Below are positions 11 to 44,725 of a DNA stretch of 64,000 bases, in pieces (the stretch's first letter is position 1; each line of letters begins with the position of its first letter). This DNA is from Escherichia coli (GTDB lineage Bacteria; Pseudomonadota; Gammaproteobacteria; Enterobacterales; Enterobacteriaceae): NCBI RefSeq assembly GCF_024223415.1, contig NZ_CP100500.1; one strand, given 5' to 3'. The notes under the pieces are model-generated. The model saw only the letters and a list, made by a program, of their open reading frames with translations, was not told the DNA's origin and did not search any database. A program made the position numbers and the translations under genes.

Positions 11-86
<76 letters not shown>

Positions 87-95
87 AATTTCCAA

Positions 96-122
96 CCCTC
101 GCTGCAAAGCGGGGGTTTTTTG
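96..122 (+). terminator. Rho-independent terminator after tRNA-Ala
   Basis: GC-rich hairpin CCCTCGC-TGCAA-AGCGGGGG followed by a T-run. Confidence 0.6.
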
Positions 123-293
123 TCTCTGCTTTTTGCCGCTTTTGTAATACAGTCTACGTCCGGGTTAGCGCCGCCTGGTGAAAGCATCATTGGATGAAAA
201 ATCGGCAACAGGCTGGCCCCTGTTTGCTTCGCGATGCGAATAAACTTATTATTTGTGTGCCTGAAAACCCCGATCAGTGAGAGTAGTGTACTC

Positions 294-2483
294 ATGTTTG
301 TGGAGCATAACCTGATAAAAAATATCAAGATATTCACACTAGCGTTTACGCTCACCGTGGTACTTATTCAGCTTTCCCGTTTTATTTCGCCACTTGCCAT
401 TATCCATTCCAGTTATATCTTTCTGGCGTGGATGCCACTGTGCGTAATGCTGTCAATCTTGTTTATCTTTGGCTGGCGCGGTGTCGTTCCCGTTTTATGC
501 GGGATGTTTTGCACCAATCTGTGGAACTTTCATCTCTCTTTTTTACAGACTGCGGTCATGCTCGGTAGCCAGACGTTTGTCGTGTTGTGTGCCTGCGCAA
601 TATTACGCTGGCAGCTGGGGACGCGTTGGCGTTATGGATTGACCAGCCGATATGTCTGGCAACGTCTGTTCTGGCTTGGTTTGGTGACGCCGATCGGCAT
701 CAAATGCAGCATGTATCTTGTGGGGAGCTTCTTTGATTTCCCGCTAAAGATATCCACCTTTTTCGGCGATGCGGATGCCATTTTCACGGTCGTTGATTTG
801 CTAAGCCTTTTCACCGCTGTGCTGATTTACAACATGCTTTTCTACTATCTCACTCGCATGATTGTAAGTCCCCACTTTGCGCAGATATTGTGGCGCAGGG
901 ATATCGCTCCGTCGTTGGGCAAAGAGAAACGCGCATTTACCTTAAGCTGGCTGGCAGCGTTAAGCGTGCTGCTACTTCTGTTGTGCACACCTTATGAAAA
1001 CGACTTTATTGCCGGTTACCTGGTACCCGTTTTCTTCATCATCTTTACCCTCGGGGTCGGTAAGCTTCGCTATCCGTTTTTAAATCTCACTTGGGCTGTT
1101 TCAACGCTTTGCCTGCTGAATTACAACCAGAACTTTTTGCAAGGGGTGGAAACCGAATATTCGCTGGCATTTATTCTCGCGGTGCTGATTTCCTTTAGCG
1201 TTTGCCTGCTCTATATGGTGCGCATTTATCATCGCAGTGAATGGCTTAATCGACGCTGGCATTTGCAGGCGCTGACCGATCCGTTAACGCTCCTACCCAA
1301 TTTTCGTGCGTTGGAACAAGCGCCGGAGCAAGAGGCGGGCAAGAGTTTTTGCTGCCTGCGCATTGATAATCTTGAGTTTATGAGTCGTCATTACGGGTTA
1401 ATGATGCGCGTTCACTGTATCCGATCAATTTACCGTACGCTGCTGCCGTTGATGCAGGAAAACGAAAAGTTGTATCAATTGCCGGGTAGTGAACTGCTGT
1501 TAGTGCTGAGCGGGCCGGAAACGGAAGGGCGACTCCAGCATATGGTTAACATCCTGAATAGTCGGCAAATTCACTGGAACAATACCGGGCTGGATATGGG
1601 CTATGGTGCTGCCTGGGGGCGTTTTGATGGAAATCAGGAAACCCTGCAACCCTTGTTGGGGCAGTTAAGCTGGCTGGCGGAGCAATCCTGTGCACATCAT
1701 CATGTGCTGGCGCTGGATAGCAGAGAGGAGATGGTTTCCGGGCAGACCACTAAACAGGTGCTATTGCTGAATACCATTCGAACGGCGTTAGATCAGGGTG
1801 ATTTGCTGCTCTACGCCCAGCCAATTCGCAACAAAGAGGGTGAAGGTTATGATGAGATCCTCGCGCGACTGAAATATGACGGCGGCATTATGACCCCGGA
1901 TAAGTTTCTGCCCCTTATTGCTCAGTTTAACCTTAGCGCGCGTTTTGATTTGCAAGTGCTGGAATCCTTGTTGAAGTGGCTGGCAACACACCCTTGCGAC
2001 AAAAAAGGCCCGCGCTTTTCAGTTAATTTAATGCCGCTCACGCTGCTGCAAAAGAATATTGCCGGGCGGATTATTCGTCTATTTAAGCGTTATCACATCT
2101 CCCCGCAGGCGGTCATTCTTGAGATCACCGAGGAGCAGGCGTTTTCTAACGCAGAAAGCAGCATGTACAACATCGAGCAGCTGCATAAGTTTGGTTTCCG
2201 GATTGCGATTGATGACTTTGGCACCGGCTATGCCAACTACGAACGGTTAAAGCGTTTGCAGGCTGATATCATCAAAATTGATGGCGTCTTTGTGAAAGAT
2301 ATTGTCACGAATACGCTGGATGCGATGATTGTGAGATCAATTACCGATCTGGCGAAAGCGAAGTCATTGAGTGTGGTCGCGGAGTTTGTCGAGACGCAAC
2401 AGCAGCAGGCGTTATTGCATAAGCTCGGGGTGCAATATCTGCAGGGGTATTTGATTGGTCGCCCGCAGCCATTAGCTGATTAA
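294..2483 (+). CDS. pdeA: c-di-GMP phosphodiesterase PdeA (YfeA), membrane protein with C-terminal EAL domain
   Basis: ORF 234..2483; the recalled K-12 protein is 729 aa starting MFVEHNLIKN, which is the internal Met 20 codons downstream of the ORF start. Multiple N-terminal hydrophobic segments and an EAL-like C-terminus. Confidence 0.85.
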   Translation: MFVEHNLIKNIKIFTLAFTLTVVLIQLSRFISPLAIIHSSYIFLAWMPLCVMLSILFIFGWRGVVPVLCGMFCTNLWNFHLSFLQTAVMLGSQTFVVLCACAILRWQLGTRWRYGLTSRYVWQRLFWLGLVTPIGIKCSMYLVGSFFDFPLKISTFFGDADAIFTVVDLLSLFTAVLIYNMLFYYLTRMIVSPHFAQILWRRDIAPSLGKEKRAFTLSWLAALSVLLLLLCTPYENDFIAGYLVPVFFIIFTLGVGKLRYPFLNLTWAVSTLCLLNYNQNFLQGVETEYSLAFILAVLISFSVCLLYMVRIYHRSEWLNRRWHLQALTDPLTLLPNFRALEQAPEQEAGKSFCCLRIDNLEFMSRHYGLMMRVHCIRSIYRTLLPLMQENEKLYQLPGSELLLVLSGPETEGRLQHMVNILNSRQIHWNNTGLDMGYGAAWGRFDGNQETLQPLLGQLSWLAEQSCAHHHVLALDSREEMVSGQTTKQVLLLNTIRTALDQGDLLLYAQPIRNKEGEGYDEILARLKYDGGIMTPDKFLPLIAQFNLSARFDLQVLESLLKWLATHPCDKKGPRFSVNLMPLTLLQKNIAGRIIRLFKRYHISPQAVILEITEEQAFSNAESSMYNIEQLHKFGFRIAIDDFGTGYANYERLKRLQADIIKIDGVFVKDIVTNTLDAMIVRSITDLAKAKSLSVVAEFVETQQQQALLHKLGVQYLQGYLIGRPQPLAD

Positions 2484-2491
2484 CAGGCGTA

Positions 2492-2523
2492 AAAAAACCG
2501 GGGAATTATCCCCGGCTTTTTTA
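2492..2523. terminator. Bidirectional rho-independent terminator between convergent pdeA and nupC
   Basis: Hairpin AAAAAAACCGGGGAATTATCCCCGGCTTTTTT with A-run on one side and T-run on the other. No IS element lies between the two genes. Confidence 0.7.
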
Positions 2524-2532
2524 TGTATGGTC

Positions 2533-3735
2533 TTACAGCACCAGTGCTGCGATTGACGCAGACAGCACACTCACCAGGGTAGAGCCGTAAACCAGCTTCA
2601 GACCGAAGCGAGAAACCACGTTACCTTGCTCTTCATTCAGGCCTTTAACTGCACCTGCGATAATCCCGATTGAAGAGAAGTTAGCGAAGGAAACCAGGAA
2701 CACAGAGATGATGCCTTCAGCACGCGGAGAGAGTGTAGAGGCAATTTTCTGCAGATCCATCATCGCAACGAACTCGTTAGAAACCAGTTTGGTCGCCATG
2801 ATACTGCCCACTTGCAGTGCTTCACTGGAAGGAACACCCATCACCCATGCAATCGGATAGAAGATGTAGCCCAGGATGCCCTGGAAGGAGATGCTGTAGC
2901 CAAACCAGCCAGTCACGGTAGCAAACAGTGCGTTCAGCGCGGCGATCAGGGCGATAAAGCCGATCAGCATCGCGGCAACGATAATGGCAACTTTGAAACC
3001 TGCCAGAATGTATTCACCCAGCATTTCGAAGAAGCTCTGACCTTCGTGCAGGTTGGACATCTGAATGTTTTCTTCACTGGCATCAACACGGTAAGGGTTG
3101 ATCAGCGACAGCACGATAAAGGTGCTGAACATGTTCAGTACCAGCGCCGCAACGACATATTTCGGCTCCAGCATGGTCATGTATGCACCAACGATGGACA
3201 TAGATACGGTGGACATCGCCGTTGCTGCCATGGTATACATACGATTGCGGGAGATTTTGCCGAGGATATCTTTATAGGCAATAAAGTTTTCAGACTGACC
3301 CAGAATCAGGGAGCTGACGGCGTTAAAGGATTCCAGTTTGCCCATGCCGTTGACTTTGGAGAGCAGGAAACCAATTGCGCGGATAATCACCGGCAACACG
3401 CGAATGTGCTGGAGAATACCGATCAGTGCAGAGATAAAGACGATTGGGCACAGCACTTTCAGGAAGAAGAATGCCAGGCCTTGATCATTCATGCTACCAA
3501 AGACGAAGTTAGTCCCTTCGTTGGCAAATCCGAGCAGTTTTTCGAACATTTCGGAGAAGCCTTTCACGAAGCCTAAACCAACGTCGGAGTTCAGGAAGAA
3601 CCACGCCAGTAACACTTCGATAACAAGCAGTTGAATAACATAACGGATACGAATTTTTTTGCGGTCGCTGCTTACCAGCAGTGCGAGAATCGCAACAACG
3701 GCAAGTGCCAGTACAAAATGAAGGACGCGGTCCAT
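2533..3735 (-). CDS. nupC: Nucleoside:H+ symporter NupC
   Basis: ORF 2533..3774; protein matches NupC from [14 protein letters not shown] (400 aa). The first 13 codons of the ORF are probably an upstream extension. Confidence 0.9.
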
Positions 3736-4002
3736 ATTTGCTCCAAATATGAGGCAGGTTAAATTTCCGTGCACATTCTATGTAACATGGTTAAGGAAAA
3801 CGAGATCTGACACACACTATAATGACGTCCTGTGACAAGCTTCAAAAATAGTGAGCTGTCATACATTTCTGCTATGTTGTGTATGGAAGCTGAAAGTTAT
3901 GTAAATGTGCTAACATTAAACATAACCATAACATTCAAGTCATCAATCTTTTCGTAGTCATAATCCTGGTCTATCAGAGAAATCACCACAACCCATTTAA
4001 AT

Positions 4003-4021
4003 GAATTTGATAATCATTCTC
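4003..4021 (+). promoter_or_regulatory. Fur box in the mntH promoter
   Basis: TTGATAATCATTCTC-like sequence resembling the Fur consensus GATAATGATAATCATTATC, about 50 nt upstream of the mntH start. Confidence 0.5.
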
Positions 4022-4036
4022 GTTTGGCATAGCATG

Positions 4037-4058
4037 AAACATAGCAAAGGCTATGTTT
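4037..4058 (+). promoter_or_regulatory. MntR operator in the mntH promoter
   Basis: Near-perfect palindrome AAACATAGC-AAA-GGCTATGTTT immediately upstream of the mntH RBS, matching the known MntR box. Confidence 0.65.
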
Positions 4059-4061
4059 TAG

Positions 4062-5309
<1,248 letters not shown>

Positions 5310-5336
5310 TTCAACTGGTGTCGCATCTGGCACCAT

Positions 5337-5428
<92 letters not shown>

Positions 5429-5449
5429 GTGCTCCATTGGCGAATGTGT

Positions 5450-5776
5450 TTAATGGCGGTGTCCATGTCCGCGGCCTTTTCCGCGATGATCGTCACGATC
5501 GCGCCAGCCTTCACGATAGCCACGCTCATATGCTTTACGCTTATCCCAGCCACGATGGTAGCCATTATCATGACGCCACCAGCGGTTTTTACGCCATTCA
5601 TAATTGCGATGCCAGTAGTCACGGTCGCGCCAGTGACCACCGTCCCAGTAATTACCGTAATGATCGCGATCGCCAATTTGTAATTTGATTGATGGCAGTA
5701 GGGTGATTTCGCCTGCGTTTGCTGCAAGCGGGGTAAATGCCATCAGGGCGGCCGCCAGAAACAGTGACCTGAACAT
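5450..5776 (-). CDS. ypeC: DUF2502 small secreted protein YpeC
   Basis: 108-aa ORF with a signal peptide ([21 protein letters not shown]) and a basic, Trp/Arg/Asp/His-rich low-complexity C-terminus, as in YpeC. Confidence 0.8.
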
Positions 5777-5890
5777 TGTTATTCTCCTTCACGATCGAAG
5801 CCGTCAGCGGCCTGTTAACGCAATATTACGGGGAGGTAAAGCCCCGTATCATCGCCATAACTCTTAAATCATAAAGGAGAGCATTTTTTG

Positions 5891-7147
5891 CTAAACGTTA
5901 TCGTGGGGTGGCTGTTGCTTCGGACGATTGACCATCATCATCGGCTTACCTGCTAATAACAGCCATGCCGGAAGCATGACGATACAGAGCAGCGGTAGCA
6001 ATGTGGTATTGGGTACAACGACTGCCGCCATAAAAAGACTTAACCAGCCATCGCGTGTTACCACCAGCACGATGCCGAGAATAGCGCAGGAAACGGTTAT
6101 TGCCGCTGGTACGGCGGGAACGTGCTCATGCAGCATCAACCCTAATGCCACGCCGACAAACACTGCCGGGAAGATTCGCCCACCGCGAAAGCCACTGGCG
6201 GCAGCAACGACCAGGGCGGCAAGTTTAATTACCGCCAGCAAAAAGTAATCGCTGGTGCTGAAAGCCTGATTTGCCACCATCTGCTGCATCTCATCCAGCC
6301 CTTTAAACAGCGAAACTGGTCCACCAATAACCCCCAGAATACCGAGAATAAATCCACCAATACCCAGCACGAGCACCGGATTTTTCATTTGATGCATCAT
6401 CGCGTGCAACCGTGGTAAGCACCATACGGCGACCATCCCTGCTGCGATGGCAATCGCCGCGACAATTGCACCGCTGAGAATATCGGTCATTTCCATCTGT
6501 CCGTAATGCGCAATGGGCAATGAAAAATGAGGATGGAAAAATAATCCGGTAGTAAGTGCACCAGCTGCTGCCGCCATTAACGGCGCAAAAAGACGATCCC
6601 ATAGCGGAACTTCACTACTGCCATTTAAGGTTTGCGAAAATATCAACGCCGCCGCAACAGGTGTACCAAACAGCGCGCCGATGGTTCCGGCAGAGGCTAA
6701 AATAGTCCACTCCATTCGGTTGACGCGCGGTAACAGACGAGCGCCAATGGCAACCGCAAGGGCGATATTGACGGTCATGATCGGATGTTCCGGCCCCAGG
6801 CTGACGCCGCCAGCAAGACCGAGAATTAATGCTACGATAAGTCCTGGTAGCGCAGAGGGCGGAACCGGTGCGCCGATCAGCGGTTCACAGGCGGGGTCTG
6901 GTCCGGCATGACCCTGGCTGAAACGGATAACCAACCCCACCGCAATACCCGTTAGCGTTAATACACCGATGATCCAGAGAGGTGAATCCTGTGCTATTCC
7001 CAGAGTTCCCGGCAGTCGTTGCCAGAGCAAATTCTGTAATACCGAGGCGATTTTCATCACCACAATCAGAATAAGACTGGACGCAATCCCAATTGCCACG
7101 GCGGGGAGCGATAATAACAACATGGTTCTGGCTCGCGGATGGAGCAT
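5891..7147 (-). CDS. yfeO: Putative ion channel/transporter YfeO (ClC-like family)
   Basis: 418-aa polytopic membrane ORF between ypeC and glk, in the conserved position of yfeO. Confidence 0.85.
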
Positions 7148-7350
7148 GTTCTATTCCTTATGCGGGGTCAGATACTTAGTTTGCCCAGCTTGCAAAAAGG
7201 CATCGCTGCAATTGGTGCTGAAACGATAAAGTAATTGTGTGACCCAGATCGATATTTACTGGGAGCCTGCCTTTCCGGCGTTGTTGTTATGCCCCCAGGT
7301 ATTTACAGTGTGAGAAAGAATTATTTTGACTTTAGCGGAGCAGTTGAAGA

Positions 7351-34599: not shown

Positions 34600-36137
34600 T
34601 GGCAATCACTAAATCAACTCCGGCACCATTAACCGGTGGGACGTTATGGTGCGTCACTATTGCATTGTCATTAGCGACGTTTATGCAAATGTTGGATTCC
34701 ACTATTTCTAACGTCGCAATACCGACAATATCTGGCTTTCTGGGAGCATCAACAGACGAAGGCACCTGGGTTATCACCTCGTTTGGCGTAGCAAATGCCA
34801 TTGCGATCCCTGTTACCGGCAGGCTGGCACAAAGAATAGGCGAATTAAGGTTATTTTTACTTTCAGTCACTTTTTTTTCGCTGTCTTCCTTAATGTGTAG
34901 TTTATCGACCAATCTTGATGTGCTGATATTTTTTAGAGTCGTTCAGGGATTAATGGCGGGGCCGTTAATTCCACTGTCACAGAGTTTATTATTAAGGAAT
35001 TATCCACCAGAAAAAAGAACATTTGCTCTGGCATTATGGTCTATGACCGTGATTATCGCTCCGATATGTGGGCCGATATTAGGCGGTTATATTTGTGATA
35101 ACTTTAGCTGGGGTTGGATATTTTTAATCAATGTCCCTATGGGGATTATCGTCCTGACATTATGCTTAACCTTACTTAAAGGAAGAGAAACTGAGACTTC
35201 ACCGGTCAAAATGAATCTACCAGGACTGACCCTGTTAGTGCTCGGTGTTGGTGGCTTGCAAATTATGCTTGATAAAGGGCGCGATCTGGATTGGTTCAAC
35301 TCGAGTACAATAATAATATTAACAGTAGTATCAGTTATTTCTCTGATCTCTTTAGTCATTTGGGAGTCGACCTCAGAGAACCCGATTCTTGATCTCAGTT
35401 TGTTTAAGTCCCGTAACTTCACCATTGGTATTGTGAGTATCACATGCGCGTATTTATTTTACTCTGGAGCGATAGTCCTTATGCCGCAGTTACTCCAGGA
35501 AACAATGGGGTATAATGCGATTTGGGCTGGGCTTGCTTATGCGCCCATCGGCATCATGCCGCTATTAATATCACCTTTGATAGGACGTTATGGCAACAAA
35601 ATTGATATGCGGTTGTTGGTGACATTTAGTTTTTTAATGTATGCGGTTTGCTATTACTGGCGTTCTGTGACATTTATGCCAACGATTGATTTTACAGGCA
35701 TCATTTTGCCACAGTTTTTTCAGGGATTCGCCGTCGCCTGTTTCTTTTTACCCTTAACAACGATTTCGTTTTCAGGTTTGCCAGATAATAAATTTGCCAA
35801 TGCCTCGAGTATGAGTAATTTTTTTCGTACCTTGTCAGGATCAGTTGGTACGTCGTTGACAATGACGCTGTGGGGACGCCGAGAATCATTACACCATAGT
35901 CAGTTGACAGCAACCATCGATCAATTTAACCCCGTGTTTAATTCATCGTCACAAATTATGGATAAATACTATGGTTCGCTTTCAGGGGTTCTTAATGAAA
36001 TTAATAATGAAATAACTCAGCAGTCACTTTCAATTTCTGCAAATGAGATTTTCCGTATGGCGGCTATTGCTTTTATCTTACTTACGGTATTGGTTTGGTT
36101 TGCGAAACCGCCGTTTACAGCGAAAGGTGTTGGGTGA
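34599..36137 (+). CDS. emrY: MFS (DHA2) multidrug efflux pump EmrY
   Basis: 512-aa 14-TM MFS ORF whose start overlaps the emrK stop. Confidence 0.9.
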   Translation: MAITKSTPAPLTGGTLWCVTIALSLATFMQMLDSTISNVAIPTISGFLGASTDEGTWVITSFGVANAIAIPVTGRLAQRIGELRLFLLSVTFFSLSSLMCSLSTNLDVLIFFRVVQGLMAGPLIPLSQSLLLRNYPPEKRTFALALWSMTVIIAPICGPILGGYICDNFSWGWIFLINVPMGIIVLTLCLTLLKGRETETSPVKMNLPGLTLLVLGVGGLQIMLDKGRDLDWFNSSTIIILTVVSVISLISLVIWESTSENPILDLSLFKSRNFTIGIVSITCAYLFYSGAIVLMPQLLQETMGYNAIWAGLAYAPIGIMPLLISPLIGRYGNKIDMRLLVTFSFLMYAVCYYWRSVTFMPTIDFTGIILPQFFQGFAVACFFLPLTTISFSGLPDNKFANASSMSNFFRTLSGSVGTSLTMTLWGRRESLHHSQLTATIDQFNPVFNSSSQIMDKYYGSLSGVLNEINNEITQQSLSISANEIFRMAAIAFILLTVLVWFAKPPFTAKGVG

Positions 36138-36245
36138 TGGTAAAAAGAGAGAGCTATAGCAGGTAAGACGGTAGAATCTTAAGCCTGCGCCATCGGCAGC
36201 ATCGCTCACCCAGGGAAAGGATGGCGATGCTGCATTGAAAATTAA

Positions 36246-37574
36246 TTAGCGGCCTTTTGCCAGATATTGCTCCATCTCTTCTTCCGGCACCATTCCACCT
36301 CCCGTCGCCCACACCAGATGAGTGGCATTACGCAGTTGTTCTGCGCTGAAACCGTGCATCTGTTGGTAACTTACTGATGCGCACACGCGCTGAGGCCCGG
36401 CCATACCCGCCAGTGCCGAAGGTTCAAGACGAATACCTTCTTCCTGCGTCAGCCAGCCAAGCATGTCATACATGGTTGGATCGCTAAGGGTATAGAAGCC
36501 ATCCAGCAGACGCTCCATTGCCCGCCCGACAAAGCCTGATGCGCGACCAACAGCAAGGCCATCCGCTGCGGTAAGGTTGTCGATACCAATATCCTGAACA
36601 GAGATCTGATCGTGTAATCCTGTATGGACGCCTAACAGCATACAAGGGGAGTGCGTTGGTTCGGCAAAAAAACAGTGAACATGATCGCCAAACGCCAGTT
36701 TAAGTCCGAATGCGACGCCACCAGGACCACCGCCAACACCACACGGCAGATAGACAAACAGAGGGTTATCAGCATCGACGATACGACCTTGCTCGGCAAA
36801 TTGCGCTTTAAGACGCTGGCCAGCGACGGAATACCCAAGGAACAACGTGCGGGAATTTTCGTCATCAATAAAGAAACAGTTCGGGTCAGACTGCGCTGCT
36901 TTACGTCCTTCCTCGACGGCAACACCATAATCTTGCTCATATTCCACGACCGTAACGCCATGGCTGCGCAGTTTCGCTTTTTTCCATGCCCGGGCATCAG
37001 CAGACATATGCACTGTCACCTTAAAGCCAATGCGGGCGCTCATAATGCCGATTGATAACCCCAGATTTCCGGTTGAGCCCACAGCAATGCTGTATTGGCT
37101 AAAGAACTGTTTAAACTCCGGAGAAAGCAGTTTGCTGTAGTCATCATCAAGCGTCAGCAACCCCGCTTCCAGAGCCAGTTTTTCTGCGTGTGCCAGGACT
37201 TCATAAATCCCGCCGCGTGCTTTTATGGAGCCGGAAATGGGCAAATGGCTATCTTTTTTCAGTAACAGTTGCCCGCTGATCGGTTGTTGATATTCCTTTT
37301 CCAGCCGTTTTTGCATAGCCGGAATGGCAACCAGTTCTGATTCAATAATCCCCCCAGTGGCAGCAGTTTCAGGAAATGCTTTTGCCAGATAGGGTGCAAA
37401 ACGGGATAAGCGCGCATGGGCGTCCTGAACATCCTGTTCGGTCAGGCCAACATAAGGTAAACCTTCAGCCAATGAGGTCGTGCCAGGATTAAACCAGGTG
37501 GTTTCTTTAAGAGCAACCAGATCCTTTACCAACGGATACTGGGCGATGAGCGAGTTCATTTTAGCGTTTTCCAT
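36246..37574 (-). CDS. dsdA: D-serine ammonia-lyase (D-serine dehydratase)
   Basis: 442-aa ORF starting [31 protein letters not shown], with the PLP-lysine region SGSIKARGG. Confidence 0.95.
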
Positions 37575-37591
37575 AGTACGTCTCTTTGCGC

Positions 37592-37810
37592 TTAGATGAT
37601 AAATGACAGCAGGAATGTGCCCGCCAGAGCGACGACTGAAGCGATAAATGTCGCTGTCGTATAGTATTTAAATGTTTCATTGAGCGTAGCGCCGCAATAT
37701 TGCTTCACCAGCCAGAAAAGCGAGTCCGTAACGATCGTGCAGCCAATCGCGCCTGAACCGATAGCAATCGTAATAATTTCCGGGCTGATGTCGGGATACA
37801 GCGGCAGCAC
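37592..37810 (-). pseudogene. dsdX: 3' remnant of D-serine permease gene dsdX (C-terminal ~72 codons only)
   Basis: Short ORF encoding the GntP-family C-terminal TM segments ([56 protein letters not shown]) directly upstream of dsdA; no N-terminal coding sequence follows, only the cscR upstream region. Confidence 0.75.
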
Positions 37811-38040
37811 AATGATCCATATTTATATTTTCTTCTCCAGGTTGGCGATGCCAGTTGGCATGTTTTACTTACTTGCCTATATGGTTACTCGTTGGCGAGA
37901 ACAGAGGCGGAATTGGGGACAATTGTCCGGGAATTATTGTTATTTTTTATTGTATTGCCGTGTCAGGTGATAGGGCGTTGGATCTCGCCAGTGACGTCTG
38001 TTTCTGCTACAGTGCCCGTTTTACGGCAAACGGCTTGGAT

Positions 38041-39036
38041 ATGGCTTCATTAAAGGATGTCGCACGCCTGGCGGGAGTGTCGATGATGACAGTCTCCCGG
38101 GTGATGCATAATGCAGAATCTGTGCGTCCTGCAACGCGTGACCGCGTATTGCAGGCAATCCAGACCCTGAATTATGTTCCTGATCTTTCCGCCCGTAAGA
38201 TGCGCGCTCAAGGACGTAAGCCGTCGACTCTCGCCGTGCTGGCGCAGGACACTGCTACCACTCCTTTCTCTGTTGATATTCTGCTTGCCATTGAGCAAAC
38301 CGCCAGCGAGTTCGGCTGGAATAGTTTTTTAATCAATATTTTTTCTGAAGATGACGCTGCCCGCGCGGCACGTCAGCTGCTTGCTCACCGTCCGGATGGC
38401 ATTATCTATACTACAATGGGGCTGCGACATATCACGCTGCCTGAGTCTCTGTATGGTGAAAATATTGTATTGGCGAACTGTGTGGCGGATGACCCAGCGT
38501 TACCCAGTTATATCCCTGATGATTACACTGCACAATATGAATCAACACAGCATTTGCTCGCGGCGGGCTATCGTCAACCGTTATGCTTCTGGCTACCGGA
38601 AAGTGCGTTGGCAACAGGGTATCGTCGGCAGGGATTTGAGCAGGCCTGGCGTGATGCTGGACGAGATCTGGCTGAGGTGAAACAATTTCACATGGCAACA
38701 GGTGATGATCACTACACCGATCTCGCAAGTTTACTCAATGACCACTTCAAATCGGGCAAACCAGATTTTGATGTTCTGATATGTGGTAACGATCGCGCAG
38801 CCTTTGTGGCTTATCAGGTTCTCCTGGCGAAGGGGGTACGTATCCCGCAGGATGTCGCCGTAATGGGCTTTGATAATCTGGTTGGCGTCGGGCATCTGTT
38901 TTTACCGCCGCTGACCACAATTCAGCTTCCACATGACATTATCGGGCGGGAAGCTGCATTGCATATTATTGAAGGTCGTGAAGGGGGAAGTGTGACGCGG
39001 ATCCCTTGCCCGCTGTTGATCCGTTGTTCCACCTGA
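38041..39036 (+). CDS. cscR: LacI-family sucrose operon repressor CscR
   Basis: ORF 37855..39036; a 331-aa product from MASLKDVARLAGVSMMTVSRVMHN has a LacI-type HTH followed by a periplasmic-binding-protein-like domain. Confidence 0.85.
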   Translation: MASLKDVARLAGVSMMTVSRVMHNAESVRPATRDRVLQAIQTLNYVPDLSARKMRAQGRKPSTLAVLAQDTATTPFSVDILLAIEQTASEFGWNSFLINIFSEDDAARAARQLLAHRPDGIIYTTMGLRHITLPESLYGENIVLANCVADDPALPSYIPDDYTAQYESTQHLLAAGYRQPLCFWLPESALATGYRRQGFEQAWRDAGRDLAEVKQFHMATGDDHYTDLASLLNDHFKSGKPDFDVLICGNDRAAFVAYQVLLAKGVRIPQDVAVMGFDNLVGVGHLFLPPLTTIQLPHDIIGREAALHIIEGREGGSVTRIPCPLLIRCST

Positions 39037-39043
39037 TATTATG

Positions 39044-40486
39044 CTAACCCAGTTGCCAGAGTGCTCCATGTTGCACCACAGCCACTCCGTGGGAGGCATA
39101 AAGCGACAGTTCCCGTTCTTCTGGCTGCGGATAGATTCGACTACTCATCACCGCTTCCCCGTCGTTAATAAATACTTCCACGGATGATGTATCGATAAAT
39201 ATCCTTAGGGCGAGCGTCTCACCCTGCGGGAGGAGAATACTACGGTAGCCGTCTAAATTCTCGTGTGGGTAATACCGCCACAAAACAAGTCGCTCAGATT
39301 GGTTATCAATATACAGCCGCATTCCTGTGCCGAGCTGTAATCCGTAATGTTCGGCATCACTGTTCTTCAGCGCCCACTGCAACTGAATCTCAACTGCTTG
39401 CGCGTTTTCCTGCAAAACATATTTATTGCTGATTGTGCGGGGAGAGATAGATTGATGCTGCTGGCGTAACGACTCAGCTTCGTGTACCGGGCGTTGTAGA
39501 AGTTTGCCATTGCTCTCTGATAGCTCGCGCGCCAGCGTCATGCAGCCTGCCCAGCCTTCACGTTTTGAGGGCATTGGCGATTCCCACATATCCATCCAGC
39601 CGATAACAATACGCCGACCATCCTTCGCTACAAAGCTTTGTGGTGCATAAAAGTCATGCCCGTTATCAAGTTCAGTAAAATGCCCGGATTGTGCAAAAAG
39701 TCGTCCTGGCGACCACATTTCGGGTATTACGCCACTTTGAAAGCGATTTCGGTAACTGTATCCCTCGGCCTTCATTCCCTGCGGGGAAAACATCAGATAA
39801 TGCTGATCGCCAAGGCTGAAAAAGTCCGGACATTCCCACATATAGCTTTCACCCGCATCAGCGTGGGCCAGTACGCGATCGAAAGTCCATTCACGTAATG
39901 AACTGCCGCGATAAAGCAGGATCTGCCCCGTGTTGCCTGGGTCTTTCGCCCCGACTACCATCCACCATGAGTCGGCTTCACGCCACACTTTAGGATCGCG
40001 GAAGTGCATGATTCCTTCTGGTGGAGTGAGGATCACACCCTGTTTCTCGAAATGAATACCATCCCGACTGGTAGCCAGACATTGTACTTCGCGAATTGCA
40101 TCGTCATTACCTGCACCATCGAGCCAGACGTGTCCGGTGTAGATAAGTGAGAGGACACCATTGTCATCGACAGCACTACCTGAAAAACACCCGTCTTTGT
40201 CATTCTCGTCTCCTGGCGCTAGCGCAATAGGCTCATGCTGCCAGTGGATCATATCGTCGCTGGTGGCATGTCCCCAGTGCATTGGCCCCCAGTGTTCGCT
40301 CATCGGGTGATGTTGATAAAACGCGTGATAACGATTGTTAAACCAGATCAGGCCGTTTGGATCGTTCATCCACCCGGCAGGAGGCGCGAGGTGAAAATGG
40401 GGATAGAAAGTGTTACCTCGGCGCTCGTGAAGTTTTGCTAGTGCGTTTTGCGCCGCATGCAATCGAGATTGCGTCATTTTTATCAT
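39044..40486 (-). CDS. cscA: Sucrose-6-phosphate hydrolase / invertase CscA (GH32)
   Basis: 480-aa ORF with GH32 motifs (WMNDPNG, FRDP, EC); the true start may be Met-4 (MTQSRLHAAQ) at 40477. Confidence 0.9.
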   Translation of the reverse strand: MIKMTQSRLHAAQNALAKLHERRGNTFYPHFHLAPPAGWMNDPNGLIWFNNRYHAFYQHHPMSEHWGPMHWGHATSDDMIHWQHEPIALAPGDENDKDGCFSGSAVDDNGVLSLIYTGHVWLDGAGNDDAIREVQCLATSRDGIHFEKQGVILTPPEGIMHFRDPKVWREADSWWMVVGAKDPGNTGQILLYRGSSLREWTFDRVLAHADAGESYMWECPDFFSLGDQHYLMFSPQGMKAEGYSYRNRFQSGVIPEMWSPGRLFAQSGHFTELDNGHDFYAPQSFVAKDGRRIVIGWMDMWESPMPSKREGWAGCMTLARELSESNGKLLQRPVHEAESLRQQHQSISPRTISNKYVLQENAQAVEIQLQWALKNSDAEHYGLQLGTGMRLYIDNQSERLVLWRYYPHENLDGYRSILLPQGETLALRIFIDTSSVEVFINDGEAVMSSRIYPQPEERELSLYASHGVAVVQHGALWQLG

Positions 40487-40510
40487 CCTGGTTAAGCAAA
40501 TTTGGTGAAT

Positions 40511-40524
40511 TGTTAACGTTAACT
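40511..40524. promoter_or_regulatory. Candidate CscR operator (copy 1) in the cscA-cscK divergent promoter region
   Basis: TGTTAACGTTAACT, with palindromic core GTTAACGTTAAC; an identical copy lies 64 nt away. Confidence 0.45.
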
Positions 40525-40574
40525 TTAATAAAAATAAAGTCCCTTACTTTCATAAATGCGATGAATATCACAAA

Positions 40575-40588
40575 TGTTAACGTTAACT
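40575..40588. promoter_or_regulatory. Candidate CscR operator (copy 2)
   Basis: Second exact copy of TGTTAACGTTAACT. A CRP-like half-site TGTGATCGAATATGCA follows at about 40598..40613. Confidence 0.45.
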
Positions 40589-40692
40589 ATGACATTTTGT
40601 GATCGAATATGCATGTTTTAGTTAATCCATGACGATTTTGCGAAAAAGAGGTTTATCACTATGCGTAAGTCAGATGAATTTAAGGGAAAAAA

Positions 40693-41607
40693 ATGTCAGC
40701 CAAAGTATGGGTTTTAGGGGATGCGGTAGTAGATCTCTTGCCAGAATCAGACGGGCGCCTACTGCCTTGTCCTGGCGGCGCGCCAGCTAACGTTGCGGTG
40801 GGAATCGCCAGATTAGGCGGAATAAGTGGGTTTATAGGTCGGGTCGGTGATGATCCTTTTGGTGCATTAATGCAAAGAACGCTGCTAACTGAGGGAGTCG
40901 ATATCACGTATCTGAAGCAAGATGAATGGCACCGGACATCCACGGTGCTTGTCGATCTGAACGATCAAGGGGAACGTTCATTTACGTTTATGGTCCGCCC
41001 CAGTGCCGATCTTTTTTTAGAGACGACAGACTTGCCCTGCTGGCGACATGGCGAATGGTTACATCTCTGTTCAATTGCGTTGTCTGCCGAGCCTTCGCGT
41101 ACCAGCGCATTTACTGCGATGACGGCGATCCGGCATGCCGGAGGTTTTGTCAGCTTCGATCCCAATATTCGTGAAGATCTATGGCAAGACGAGCATTTGC
41201 TCCGCTTGTGTTTGCGGCAGGCGCTACAACTGGCGGATGTCGTCAAGCTCTCGGAAGAAGAATGGCGACTTATCAGTGGAAAAACACAGAACGATCGGGA
41301 TATATGCGCCCTGGCAAAAGAGTATGAGATCGCCATGCTGTTGGTGACTAAAGGTGCAGAAGGGGTGGTGGTCTGTTATCGAGGACAAGTTCACCATTTT
41401 GCTGGAATGTCTGTGAATTGTGTTGATAGCACGGGGGCGGGAGATGCGTTCGTTGCCGGGTTACTCACAGGTCTGTCCTCTACGGGATTATCTACAGATG
41501 AGAGAGAAATGCGACGAATTATCGATCTCGCTCAACGTTGCGGAGCGCTTGCAGTAACAGCGAAAGGGGCAATGACAGCGCTGCCATGTCGACAAGAACT
41601 GGAATAG
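40693..41607 (+). CDS. cscK: Fructokinase CscK (PfkB/ribokinase family)
   Basis: 304-aa ORF with PfkB-family motifs (N-terminal GDAVVD, C-terminal DSTGAGDAF). Confidence 0.9.
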   Translation: MSAKVWVLGDAVVDLLPESDGRLLPCPGGAPANVAVGIARLGGISGFIGRVGDDPFGALMQRTLLTEGVDITYLKQDEWHRTSTVLVDLNDQGERSFTFMVRPSADLFLETTDLPCWRHGEWLHLCSIALSAEPSRTSAFTAMTAIRHAGGFVSFDPNIREDLWQDEHLLRLCLRQALQLADVVKLSEEEWRLISGKTQNDRDICALAKEYEIAMLLVTKGAEGVVVCYRGQVHHFAGMSVNCVDSTGAGDAFVAGLLTGLSSTGLSTDEREMRRIIDLAQRCGALAVTAKGAMTALPCRQELE

Positions 41608-41678
41608 TGAGAAGTAAACGGCGAAGTCGCTCTTATCTCTAAATAGGACGTGAATTTTTTAACGACAGGCAGGTAATT

Positions 41679-42926
41679 ATGGCACTGAATATTCCATTCA
41701 GAAATGCGTACTATCGTTTTGCATCCAGTTACTCATTTCTCTTTTTTATTTCCTGGTCGCTGTGGTGGTCGTTATACGCTATTTGGCTGAAAGGACATCT
41801 AGGGTTGACAGGGACGGAATTAGGTACACTTTATTCGGTCAACCAGTTTACCAGCATTCTATTTATGATGTTCTACGGCATCGTTCAGGATAAACTCGGT
41901 CTGAAGAAACCGCTCATCTGGTGTATGAGTTTCATCCTGGTCTTGACCGGACCGTTTATGATTTACGTTTATGAACCGTTACTGCAAAGCAATTTTTCTG
42001 TAGGTCTAATTCTGGGGGCGCTCTTTTTTGGCCTGGGGTATCTGGCGGGATGCGGTTTGCTTGACAGCTTCACCGAAAAAATGGCGCGAAATTTTCATTT
42101 CGAATATGGAACAGCGCGCGCCTGGGGATCTTTTGGCTATGCTATTGGCGCGTTCTTTGCCGGCATATTTTTTAGTATCAGTCCCCATATCAACTTCTGG
42201 TTGGTCTCGCTATTTGGCGCTGTATTTATGATGATCAACATGTGTTTTAAAGATAAGGATCACCAGTGCGTAGCGGCGGATGCGGGAGGGGTAAAAAAAG
42301 AGGATTTTATCGCAGTTTTCAAGGATCGAAACTTCTGGGTTTTCGTCATATTTATTGTTGGGACGTGGTCTTTCTATAACATTTTTGATCAACAACTTTT
42401 TCCTGTTTTTTATGCAGGTTTATTCGAATCACACGATGTAGGAACGCGCCTGTATGGTTATCTCAACTCATTCCAGGTGGTACTCGAAGCGCTGTGCATG
42501 GCGATTATTCCTTTCTTTGTGAATCGGATAGGGCCAAAAAATGCATTACTTATCGGTGTTGTGATTATGGCGTTGCGTATCCTTTCCTGCGCGCTGTTCG
42601 TTAACCCCTGGATTATTTCATTAGTGAAGCTGTTACATGCCATTGAGGTTCCACTTTGTGTCATATCCGTCTTCAAATACAGCGTGGCAAACTTTGATAA
42701 GCGCCTGTCGTCGACGATCTTTCTGATTGGTTTTCAAATTGCCAGTTCGCTTGGGATTGTGCTGCTTTCAACGCCGACTGGGATACTCTTTGACCACGCA
42801 GGCTACCAGACAGTTTTCTTCGCAATTTCGGGTATTGTCTGCCTGATGTTGCTATTTGGCATTTTCTTCCTGAGTAAAAAACGCGAGCAAATAGTTATGG
42901 AAACGCCTGTACCTTCAGCAATATAG
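41679..42926 (+). CDS. cscB: Sucrose:H+ symporter CscB (MFS oligosaccharide:H+ symporter family)
   Basis: 415-aa 12-TM ORF starting MALNIPFRNAYYRFASSYSFLFFISWSLWWSLYAIWL, LacY-like. Confidence 0.9.
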   Translation: MALNIPFRNAYYRFASSYSFLFFISWSLWWSLYAIWLKGHLGLTGTELGTLYSVNQFTSILFMMFYGIVQDKLGLKKPLIWCMSFILVLTGPFMIYVYEPLLQSNFSVGLILGALFFGLGYLAGCGLLDSFTEKMARNFHFEYGTARAWGSFGYAIGAFFAGIFFSISPHINFWLVSLFGAVFMMINMCFKDKDHQCVAADAGGVKKEDFIAVFKDRNFWVFVIFIVGTWSFYNIFDQQLFPVFYAGLFESHDVGTRLYGYLNSFQVVLEALCMAIIPFFVNRIGPKNALLIGVVIMALRILSCALFVNPWIISLVKLLHAIEVPLCVISVFKYSVANFDKRLSSTIFLIGFQIASSLGIVLLSTPTGILFDHAGYQTVFFAISGIVCLMLLFGIFFLSKKREQIVMETPVPSAI

Positions 42927-43349
42927 ACGTAAACTTTTTCCGGTCGTTGTCGATATCTCCATATCCTTCAATCGGAAAATAATAATACTAAAATGCTTAG
43001 CCCTGCTAATAATCACCTATGTTCTGGTACAGTCGCTCAAATGTACTCCGGATACACGGTTCGCTGATTTCCAGGACATTGTCGTCATTCAGCGACCTGT
43101 CCCGTGTATCACGGGCCTGCAAATTCATCAAGGAATGCATTGCGGAGTGAAGTATCGAGTCACGCCGTATTTCGCTATCAGGATTCTGTGTGATGGTTAC
43201 ATCGCCCGGCCCAGGGCTGTTTAGTCATCAGCGCTTTCTGACAGTGCTGAGATTTCAACCTGTTGCAGTAAAAATGAGTAGATATAGGGCAAGTGTGCTG
43301 CCAAACCCATCTTTTATGGGGTGAAGGTAGATTTCGTTTGAAGGGTATC

Positions 43350-43424
43350 TGGTGTCCCCTGCAGGAATCGAACCTGCAATTAGCCCTTAGGAGGGGCTCG
43401 TTATATCCATTTAACTAAGAGGAC
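43350..43424 (-). tRNA. argW: tRNA-Arg (anticodon CCU)
   Basis: Reverse complement reads GTCCTCTTAGTTAAATGGATATAACGAGCCCCTCCTAAGGGCTAATTGCAGGTTCGATTCCTGCAGGGGACACCA, with the anticodon loop CT-CCT-AA; its 3' end faces cscB. Confidence 0.9.
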
Positions 43425-43499
43425 AATGCGGCATGAGTATACCCGCTAATGGACTGCGGGGTAAGTACGCTGCCGCTCGATTGCTTAAACCCTCGCCAT

Positions 43500-44432
43500 T
43501 TATGCCGGGTTTTTATCATTTTTCTTAATGTTTTCCGCACGTTCTGCTTTTTGGCGTGCTTCTGCTTTGCGCTTGTTGCTCATGTCGTTACGGATCTGTG
43601 CATGACTCATTAACGCGAAGATAAAGGTGCCGCCGCAGATGTTCCCCGCTAAAGTAGGTAGTGCGAAGGGCCAGATGAAATCGCTCCAGTGCAGCGTACC
43701 GTTAAACACCAGATAGAGGATTTCTACAGAACCGACAACGATGTGAGTGGTGTCACCCAGGGCAATAAGCCAGGTCATCAATATAATCACCACAATCTTT
43801 GCCGCACCCGCTGCAGGAAACATCCATACCATAGTGGCGATCAGCCAGCCGGAAATGATCGCGTTGGCAAACATCTCGCTGGGGGTGTTCTTCATCACAT
43901 CCATGCCGATTTTGACAAATGCATCGCGAGTTTCTTCATTGAAGATTGGCATATATTCAAATGCCCACGCCGCAATACCTGTCCCGAGAATATTACCCAG
44001 CAGCACGACGCCCCATAACCGCATAAGTAAGCCAACGTTGCTCATTGTCGGTTTTTGCATGACGGGTAGTACCGCAGTCACGGTGTTTTCGGTAAATAAT
44101 TGCTGGCGGGCCATAATGACGATAATAAAACCAAAGGTATAACCGAGATTCTCCAGCAAGAAGCTGCCCGGCACACCTTCCAGTTCGACATGAAATATCC
44201 CTTTTGCCAGTAATGAAGCGCCCATCGACAGACCCGCCGCAATGGCTGACCACAGTAGTGCCATTGCGTCGCGTTCCAGCTCTTTTTCACCATCCTGGCG
44301 GATATGCTCATGAATTGCCATCGCCCGGGAGGGGAGTCGATCTTCATCTATTTCTATTTTTTTGCCACGCTCTTTTTCTTCGCTCTCAACTTCAATTTCG
44401 TCGCTGTGTTGATCAATTTTGTCGTTGTCCAT
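43500..44432 (-). CDS. yfdC: Formate/nitrite transporter-family inner membrane protein YfdC
   Basis: ORF 43500..44549; a 310-aa product from internal Met MDNDKIDQHSDEIE, a polytopic FNT-like membrane protein. Confidence 0.8.
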   Translation of the reverse strand: MDNDKIDQHSDEIEVESEEKERGKKIEIDEDRLPSRAMAIHEHIRQDGEKELERDAMALLWSAIAAGLSMGASLLAKGIFHVELEGVPGSFLLENLGYTFGFIIVIMARQQLFTENTVTAVLPVMQKPTMSNVGLLMRLWGVVLLGNILGTGIAAWAFEYMPIFNEETRDAFVKIGMDVMKNTPSEMFANAIISGWLIATMVWMFPAAGAAKIVVIILMTWLIALGDTTHIVVGSVEILYLVFNGTLHWSDFIWPFALPTLAGNICGGTFIFALMSHAQIRNDMSNKRKAEARQKAERAENIKKNDKNPA

Positions 44433-44725
44433 GGTCTCTTCTCTTGAATTAGCACGTATAGCTAAAGCGTAGCGGCTTTTTTGCTCGCAACTGGCGGGAG
44501 TTACTCTGAAAATGTAGAAAAGGCCGCGTTTGCCTTTTTCTGTTTCCATAGAATCAAGTAGCCTACAGGGCGGCGATTACCAGGCTATGATCAAATCAGC
44601 AAATCAGGGCGTCTGGACATCAGTTGACGTGCTGTTACAATCGCCCACACCTAAACAGGCGGATACGGTATCGTTCCGTCATGGATGGCAAACTGCATAA
44701 GCCATAAAAAAACAGGGAGACATTT

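Follow-up and report, generated by a model that had tools for sequence, protein, structure and literature searches.

An intact, predicted bidirectional terminator hairpin between pdeA and nupC and an unoccupied argW site in a non-K-12 Escherichia coli chromosome segment

The insertion sequence IS186 uses the target 5'-GGGG(N6/N7)CCCC-3', a consensus built from mutation-accumulation lines in which 59 insertion sites were reconstructed (Lee et al. 2016, NAR, PMC5009759). Single sites are struck repeatedly and in either orientation, the motif being palindromic, and one site received 16 independent hits (PMC5009759). Bidirectional Rho-independent terminators of convergent E. coli genes consist of a GC-rich stem of 6–7 bp and a short loop, flanked on opposite sides by an A-tract and a T-tract, and each strand is read as a stem-loop plus a U-run.

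The 3' end of the tRNA gene argW is the attachment site of the K-12 prophage CPS-53 (KpLE1) and adjoins a variable island. The csc regulon is located between the variable argW region and dsdX in strains that have lost D-serine use (PMC3032704). The cscBKAR genes replace dsdCX in most LEE-positive strains, and argW is described as a recombination hotspot (PMC4366372). Almost all phylogroup B1 strains carry the csc genes, which also occur in D and E but not in A or F (PMC11251922).

The window, the whole 64-kb stretch of DNA analysed here, is an E. coli chromosome segment that runs from alaX to aroC in reverse orientation relative to MG1655. A tRNA-Ala(GGC) gene, equivalent to alaX, ties the window to K-12 position ~2,518,1xx in reverse orientation. 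The entire window was compared with MG1655 2,430,000–2,520,000 by blastn.

11–86, plus strand: tRNA-Ala(GGC), alaX equivalent (ARAGORN, blastn to K-12, K-12 annotation)
1–2512: K-12 2518126–2515614, 99.2% identity (blastn)
2501–37809: K-12 2514276–2478967, 97.9% identity (blastn)
37810–43349: no K-12 counterpart; csc island and spacer (blastn)
43350 onward: K-12 2466383 downward, collinearity resuming at argW (blastn)

With ~98% identity to K-12 and several structural differences, the window has the non-K-12 background proposed in the original prediction. K-12 differs from the window at both of the sites named there. IS186C lies between yfeA (pdeA) and nupC in K-12 and CPS-53 is annotated at argW, as stated there, and both are missing from the window. 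Neither the same 49-bp pdeA–nupC gap nor an empty argW was found in K-12 MG1655 by alignment. The window is almost certainly a non-K-12 segment in which two well-known insertion sites are both unoccupied. The absence of the IS186 copy and CPS-53 is an ordinary strain difference that has been documented before; both sites belong to known and largely published classes, and current understanding is unchanged. The two sites have a bookkeeping value as marks of a non-K-12, csc-carrying strain, and the window displays the pre-insertion sequence of the IS186C site of K-12.

The first site is formed by two convergent genes and the spacer between them.

294–2483, plus strand: pdeA (yfeA), c-di-GMP phosphodiesterase with MASE1, degenerate GGDEF and EAL domains (ORF, RefSeq, Pfam)
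2484–2532, no strand: intergenic gap between the convergent stops of pdeA and nupC, 49 bp (ORF table and sequence)
2491–2522, no strand: predicted bidirectional intrinsic-terminator hairpin, A7-CCGGGG-AATTAT-CCCCGG-C-T6 (terminator scan and folding)
2500–2513, no strand: unoccupied IS186 target motif GGGG(N6)CCCC, GGGGAATTATCCCC (consensus of PMC5009759)
2533–3735, minus strand: nupC, nucleoside:H+ symporter (ORF, RefSeq, Pfam)

The gene names pdeA and nupC were taken from the RefSeq annotation of 100%-identical genomes. The mechanical ORF of pdeA begins at position 234, and the RefSeq-style start lies at ~294; the reading frame closes with GAT TAA (stop codon 2481–2483). Pfam detects strong MASE1 and EAL domains in PdeA and a sub-threshold GGDEF domain. 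The GGDEF match scores 20.3 bits against a gathering cut-off of 23.8 and covers a partial profile (positions 1–109 of 161), which is consistent with a degenerate domain in a phosphodiesterase. The mechanical ORF of nupC reaches position 3774, the annotated gene spans 1,203 nt with its stop codon at 2533–2535 on the minus strand, and NupC contains three nucleoside-transporter domains (Pfam).

The spacer reads cag gcg t, followed by the hairpin element and atg. The hairpin is composed of an A-tract (2491–2497), the CCGGGG arm (2498–2503), the CCCCGG arm (2510–2515) and a T-tract (2517–2522), and is located between the convergent stop codons of pdeA (2481–2483) and nupC (2533–2535). The stem comprises seven base pairs, six of which are GC, and the isolated hairpin has a folding energy of −12.7 kcal/mol. 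In its 66-nt context, the folding energy is −29.9 kcal/mol on the plus strand and −27.6 kcal/mol on the minus strand (z = −6.5 and −6.2, respectively), and none of 200 shuffled sequences was as stable. A U-run follows the stem on both strands, T6 (2517–2522) on the plus strand and A7 (2491–2497), read as U7, on the minus strand, and a consensus scan predicted a terminator on both strands. The gap of about 50 bp with a single bidirectional terminator that had been claimed for this locus is borne out by a 49-bp spacer with one hairpin. The hairpin lies 7–17 nt past each stop codon, as in known bidirectional terminators, and its membership in this class is assigned on sequence criteria alone. The hairpin probably terminates both the pdeA and nupC transcripts in vivo.

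The GGGG-AATTAT-CCCC core of the stem-loop fits the IS186 target perfectly, with a six-nucleotide interval. No other GGGG(N6/N7)CCCC motif besides GGGGAATTATCCCC was found in the 64-kb window. The earlier reading of the hairpin as a terminator agrees with its sequence, but that reading missed that the hairpin is also the IS186 target motif. In MG1655, IS186C/insL3 (b2394) is annotated at 2514273–2515617 between nupC and pdeA. The K-12 junctions read AAAAAAACCGGGGAATTATCCC joined to ATAAGCGCTAACTTAAGGGTTG at one end of IS186 and CAACCCTTAAGTTAGCGCTTAT joined to GGGAATTATCCCCGGCTTTTTT at the other, and these sequences show that the K-12 element splits the hairpin and is bracketed by direct copies of GGGAATTATCCC. 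GGGAATTATCCC corresponds to window positions 2501–2512, and one copy flanks IS186 at each end in K-12 and in other strains. The two blastn blocks flanking the K-12 element overlap by 12 bp in the window (2501–2512), and this overlap is the target-site duplication. The duplication is 12 bp as read, or 10 bp if the terminal C/G is assigned to the 23-bp inverted repeat of IS186, and is centred on the 6-nt core, as predicted by published IS186 behaviour (PMC5009759).

These features suggest an account of the first site. The intact spacer would function as a Rho-independent bidirectional terminator for the two convergent genes, and its G4/C4 stem and 6-nt loop make up a perfect GGGG(N6)CCCC target for IS186. 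The hairpin has been split by IS186, with duplication of GGGAATTATCCC (10–12 bp), in K-12 and in about 17% of the complete genomes, and the insertion parts pdeA and nupC each from its own U-tract. After insertion, the stem left to each gene is weakened (approximately −5 versus −12.7 kcal/mol), and the U-run is on the far side of the IS. Intrinsic termination is thereby predicted to be lost for both pdeA and nupC in IS-bearing strains. Such a loss would matter when K-12 is used as the reference for termination or 3'-UTR studies at pdeA–nupC. The site resembles the IS186 hot spots of Lee et al. (2016, NAR, PMC5009759) in that the same position is filled elsewhere in either orientation; unlike those hot spots, the site is empty in the window, and the target also makes up the stem of the predicted bidirectional terminator. 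The point worth keeping is that one stem can serve both as terminator and as transposon target. A partial literature search returned no prior description of the coincidence of terminator and IS186 target or of the two-orientation polymorphism at pdeA–nupC.

The occupancy of the site was surveyed in 5,426 complete E. coli genomes using a 1.2-kb query spanning the gap, and IS orientations were assigned by 300-bp junction queries. The pdeA–nupC gap is uninterrupted in 4,460 of the 5,426 genomes, and strain EC1515 carries the empty site with a 100% match over 1.2 kb. IS186 is present in the K-12 orientation in 474 genomes and in the opposite orientation in 467, which places IS186 at exactly this site in 941 of 5,426 genomes, half of them opposite to K-12; the resulting ~17%, like other percentages from this collection, is not a population frequency, as the collection is biased to laboratory K-12 derivatives and clinical isolates. 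Of the 5,425 genomes matched, the other 24 belong neither to the uninterrupted class nor to either orientation class (5,425 − 4,460 − 941). Most genomes without an intact gap break at query position 613, which corresponds to window position 2512 inside the hairpin. The IS186-bearing genomes include wild isolates from India, China, Mozambique, Germany, Switzerland and Pakistan. Among the 40 best of the 474 K-12-orientation matches, 38 are apparently laboratory strains, K-12 derivatives for the most part, and the other two (510016 and 14EC001) are human isolates. The description of this IS186 insertion as K-12-specific does not survive the finding of the same site filled, in both orientations, in 941 of 5,426 genomes.

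An empty hairpin could also arise as an assembly artefact, in which an IS186 copy collapsed out and left a clean 49-bp gap. Short-read assemblies commonly lose or break IS elements; such a collapse, however, produces contig breaks rather than a perfect single-copy hairpin without the duplication, and the identical empty-site sequence recurs in 4,460 complete genomes, including the EC1515 match noted above. An artefact is scarcely credible here, and was rejected as the source of the empty hairpin, as was precise excision, which is considered with the flanking sequences below.

In K-12, NCTC122, Ec-050, 41EC2, 510016, 300709, 14EC001 and 25-07338, a 1,337-bp IS186 is located between direct copies of GGGAATTATCCC. 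The transposase gene is co-directional with nupC in K-12, 510016 and 14EC001, and with pdeA in NCTC122, Ec-050, 41EC2, 300709 and 25-07338. Read in reverse complement, the NCTC122 element equals the K-12 copy without a mismatch over 1,337 bp and has the same duplication, and the elements of NCTC122, Ec-050 and 41EC2 are all identical to the K-12 copy (1337/1337 bases) in the opposite orientation. The flanks of K-12 and those of NCTC122 and 300709 show no mismatches over 2.2 and 2.1 kb (4.3 kb in total) despite the opposite IS orientation. A single IS186-bearing clade with one orientation was considered and is contradicted by the two orientations.

At least two events are required at pdeA–nupC. 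The inversion of one ancestral IS186 through its 23-bp terminal inverted repeats would yield both orientations and would fit the identical flanks, element and duplication of K-12 on one side and NCTC122 and 300709 on the other. Inverted repeats of ~25 bp are, however, a poor substrate for homologous recombination, and IS186 is known to re-enter the same GGGG(N6)CCCC site in both orientations, as in the 16 independent hits cited above (PMC5009759). With the cut positions set by the target motif, independent hits yield the same duplication, and empty sites are present on a near-K-12 haplotype. Inversion is accordingly regarded as unlikely. Given the published behaviour of IS186, recurrent independent insertion appears to be the simplest reading, and the two orientations probably reflect independent insertions. 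Repeated hits in both orientations, even with identical flanks, would be expected because the hairpin stem is a perfect target motif.

The flanking haplotypes also bear on precise excision, by which the lineage of the window would have lost an earlier IS186 from the hairpin and the empty site would be derived. IS186-bearing and empty sites do occur on near-identical haplotypes, as the hairpin is empty and intact in strain 90-1, whose near-K-12 haplotype differs from K-12 by 4 mismatches over 2.2 kb and 7 over 2.1 kb; the polarity of gain and loss therefore cannot be read from the flank data alone. The window itself, however, differs from every IS-bearing genome examined by 19–20 mismatches on the pdeA side and 18–25 on the nupC side, and the hairpin is intact in the large class of 4,460 genomes. 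Excision is very rare, as mutation-accumulation lines yielded 1 case among 857 IS events (PMC5009759), and only the removal of a single copy of the duplication, neither more nor less, would give back a perfect hairpin. Precise excision is thus very improbable, and the empty site is most likely ancestral for the lineage of the window. In 510016 and 14EC001, the pdeA-side haplotype is that of K-12 (0–1 mismatch over 2.2 kb) and the nupC side differs at 24–25 positions over 2.1 kb. This haplotype switch at IS186 may mark a recombination breakpoint at the IS.

Recurrent insertion can be extended to a broader proposal, in which the pdeA–nupC terminator is a natural, recurrent IS186 hot spot with many independent gains in two orientations on phylogroup-A-like backgrounds, each with loss of both U-tracts. 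This proposal is speculative and, in our estimate, rather doubtful. If it were true, the site would provide a population-scale test of selection on GGGG(N6)CCCC targets and insertions, a question left open by Lee et al. 2016 (PMC5009759). Selection could then act through altered expression of pdeA (c-di-GMP) or nupC, or through antisense read-through into the transposase gene.

The second site is located at argW, where the window carries the csc genes next to a remnant of the dsd locus.

36246–37574, minus strand: dsdA, D-serine ammonia-lyase, retained (RefSeq annotation, Pfam)
37592–37809, minus strand: dsdX 3' remnant; K-12 homology stops at 37809 (K-12 2478967)
37810–43349, no strand: 5.5-kb segment without K-12 counterpart, csc island and spacer (blastn)
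38041–39036, plus strand: cscR, LacI-family repressor (RefSeq annotation, Pfam)
39044–40477, minus strand: cscA, sucrose-6-phosphate hydrolase/invertase, GH32 (RefSeq annotation, Pfam)
40693–41607, plus strand: cscK, fructokinase of the PfkB family (RefSeq annotation, Pfam)
41679–42926, plus strand: cscB, sucrose:H+ symporter of the LacY family (RefSeq annotation, Pfam)
43006–43170, minus strand: truncated DUF4942 gene fragment, 54 codons (Pfam positions 13–60 of 190, E = 3e-6)
43350–43424, minus strand: argW, tRNA-Arg(CCU) (ARAGORN)
43500–44432, minus strand: yfdC, conserved flank in which K-12 collinearity resumes (blastn)

All four csc genes are present, as judged from Pfam E-values of 1e-21 to 2e-193 and the RefSeq annotation of strain KV7. 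The island lies between argW and the truncated dsdX, and dsdC and most of dsdX are replaced (blastn and annotation). From the 3' end of argW, the order is DUF4942 fragment, cscB, cscK, cscA, cscR, dsdX remnant and dsdA. No integrase or phage gene was found by annotation and Pfam at the argW 3' end, which is followed instead by the DUF4942 fragment and cscB/K/A/R; gene order and Pfam thus agree with the earlier statement that argW is followed by the csc island without a phage integrase. The locus resembles the argW–dsdCXA variable island (Jahreis 2002; Moritz & Welch 2006, as far as these are conveyed in PMC3032704, PMC4366372 and PMC11251922), with dsdC lost and dsdA retained. Its layout is that described for E. 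coli W, EC3132 and EHEC. E. coli W (Table 2, PMC3032704) and O157:H7 also carry an argW prophage, whereas argW is unoccupied in the window. The replacement of dsdCX by csc at argW is well documented, and the layout is known from the literature to confer sucrose use and abolish D-serine use (PMC3032704, PMC11251922, PMC4366372). The dsdA–csc–argW–fadL layout (window 36000–50000) is common to ~1,439 of the 5,426 genomes, and the csc–argW arrangement is typical of non-A phylogroups.

The argW 3' end (43350–43372) is the attB of CPS-53-type and P22-like prophages and is unoccupied in the window. The 23-mer at this end, TGGTGTCCCCTGCAGGAATCGAA, occurs once in the window with up to three mismatches allowed, and no second copy of the argW 3' end, as expected for a hidden integrated element, was found in the window; the window therefore contains no element bounded by att repeats. 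In K-12, CPS-53 (2466369–2476583, intS first) is integrated at argW, with intS 162 bp from argW (annotation). K-12 2466384–2478966, which stands in place of window 37810–43349, contains CPS-53 (intS to torI and the pawZ attR remnant), dsdC and the 5' part of dsdX. The argW of the window is an empty tRNA attB beside cscRAKB, with cscRAKB in place of dsdC and most of dsdX; K-12 retains dsdCXA and carries the cryptic prophage CPS-53 in the argW 3' end.

Although CPS-53 itself is missing from the window, its class of element is widespread. At least 80% of a 701-bp K-12 junction query (yfdC end, argW and intS start) could be aligned in 1,859 of 5,426 genomes; an intS-type integrase thus adjoins argW far beyond K-12, contrary to the view of the argW prophage as K-12-specific. 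The junction of the window from the cscB end to argW was matched over at least 80% in 2,613 genomes, and many of these alignments end 23 nt into the argW 3' end, at query position 573. A 22-nt argW remnant (attR) adjoins the csc spacer in O157:H7 FRIK2533, and a recombinase and P22-like tail genes lie beyond it. The csc island and an argW prophage had been treated as alternatives; FRIK2533 has both, with the prophage between argW and the csc-proximal sequence.

The csc island probably first entered the chromosome at the argW hotspot, through integration or recombination, and the DUF4942 fragment may be a scar. The island may have been carried in by a tRNA-targeting integrative element that has since decayed, as opposed to homologous recombination of the flanks. 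A cargo origin would explain the truncated DUF4942 gene, of a family typical of integrative islands, between cscB and argW, and would fit the exact junction of the island with the argW 3' end (blastn) and the designation of argW as a recombination and integration hotspot in the literature (PMC11251922, PMC4366372). However, both an integrase and a second argW 3'-end repeat are missing in the window, the distal boundary lies within dsdX and not at an attR, and the present strain distribution is equally compatible with transfer by flanking homology. Delivery by such an element is possible, if less probable than not. The DUF4942 fragment is kept next to csc in many genomes, including O157:H7, and is likely the relic of an older integrated island.

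Other differences from K-12 are distributed along the window. The yfc chaperone–usher fimbrial operon (window 54065–60715, yfcV to yfcO) has only ~80% identity to K-12. The sixA–yfcV spacer (window 53652–54064) and the yfcO region (window 59891–60882) have no K-12 homology or only ~72% (blastn). This yfc allele (window 53000–61000) is rare, with matches of at least 99% in 6 of 5,426 genomes and of 95–99% in 93; identity is 100% in the pig isolate KV7 and ~95% in EDL933, in which the match spans 69% of the query. The operon appears to be a divergent fimbrial variant brought in by recombination.

The homologue of yfdF (window 45663–46943, minus strand; hypothetical in RefSeq) encodes 426 residues, compared with 352 in K-12. 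Its residues 1–130 match K-12 residues 1–129 with 92% identity, and its residues 145–426 match K-12 residues 77–352 with 74% identity. The stretch equivalent to K-12 residues 77–129 is therefore present twice in diverged form, by mosaicism or internal duplication. A blast anomaly in this gene (46513–46575) was considered as a tandem repeat and dismissed, as Tandem Repeats Finder gave only a 6-bp/18-bp microrepeat. In the mntH–ypeC intergenic region, window 5336–5436 matches the distant K-12 segment 2443787–2443879 with 81% identity (blastn), which is consistent with a dispersed REP/BIME-type repeat.
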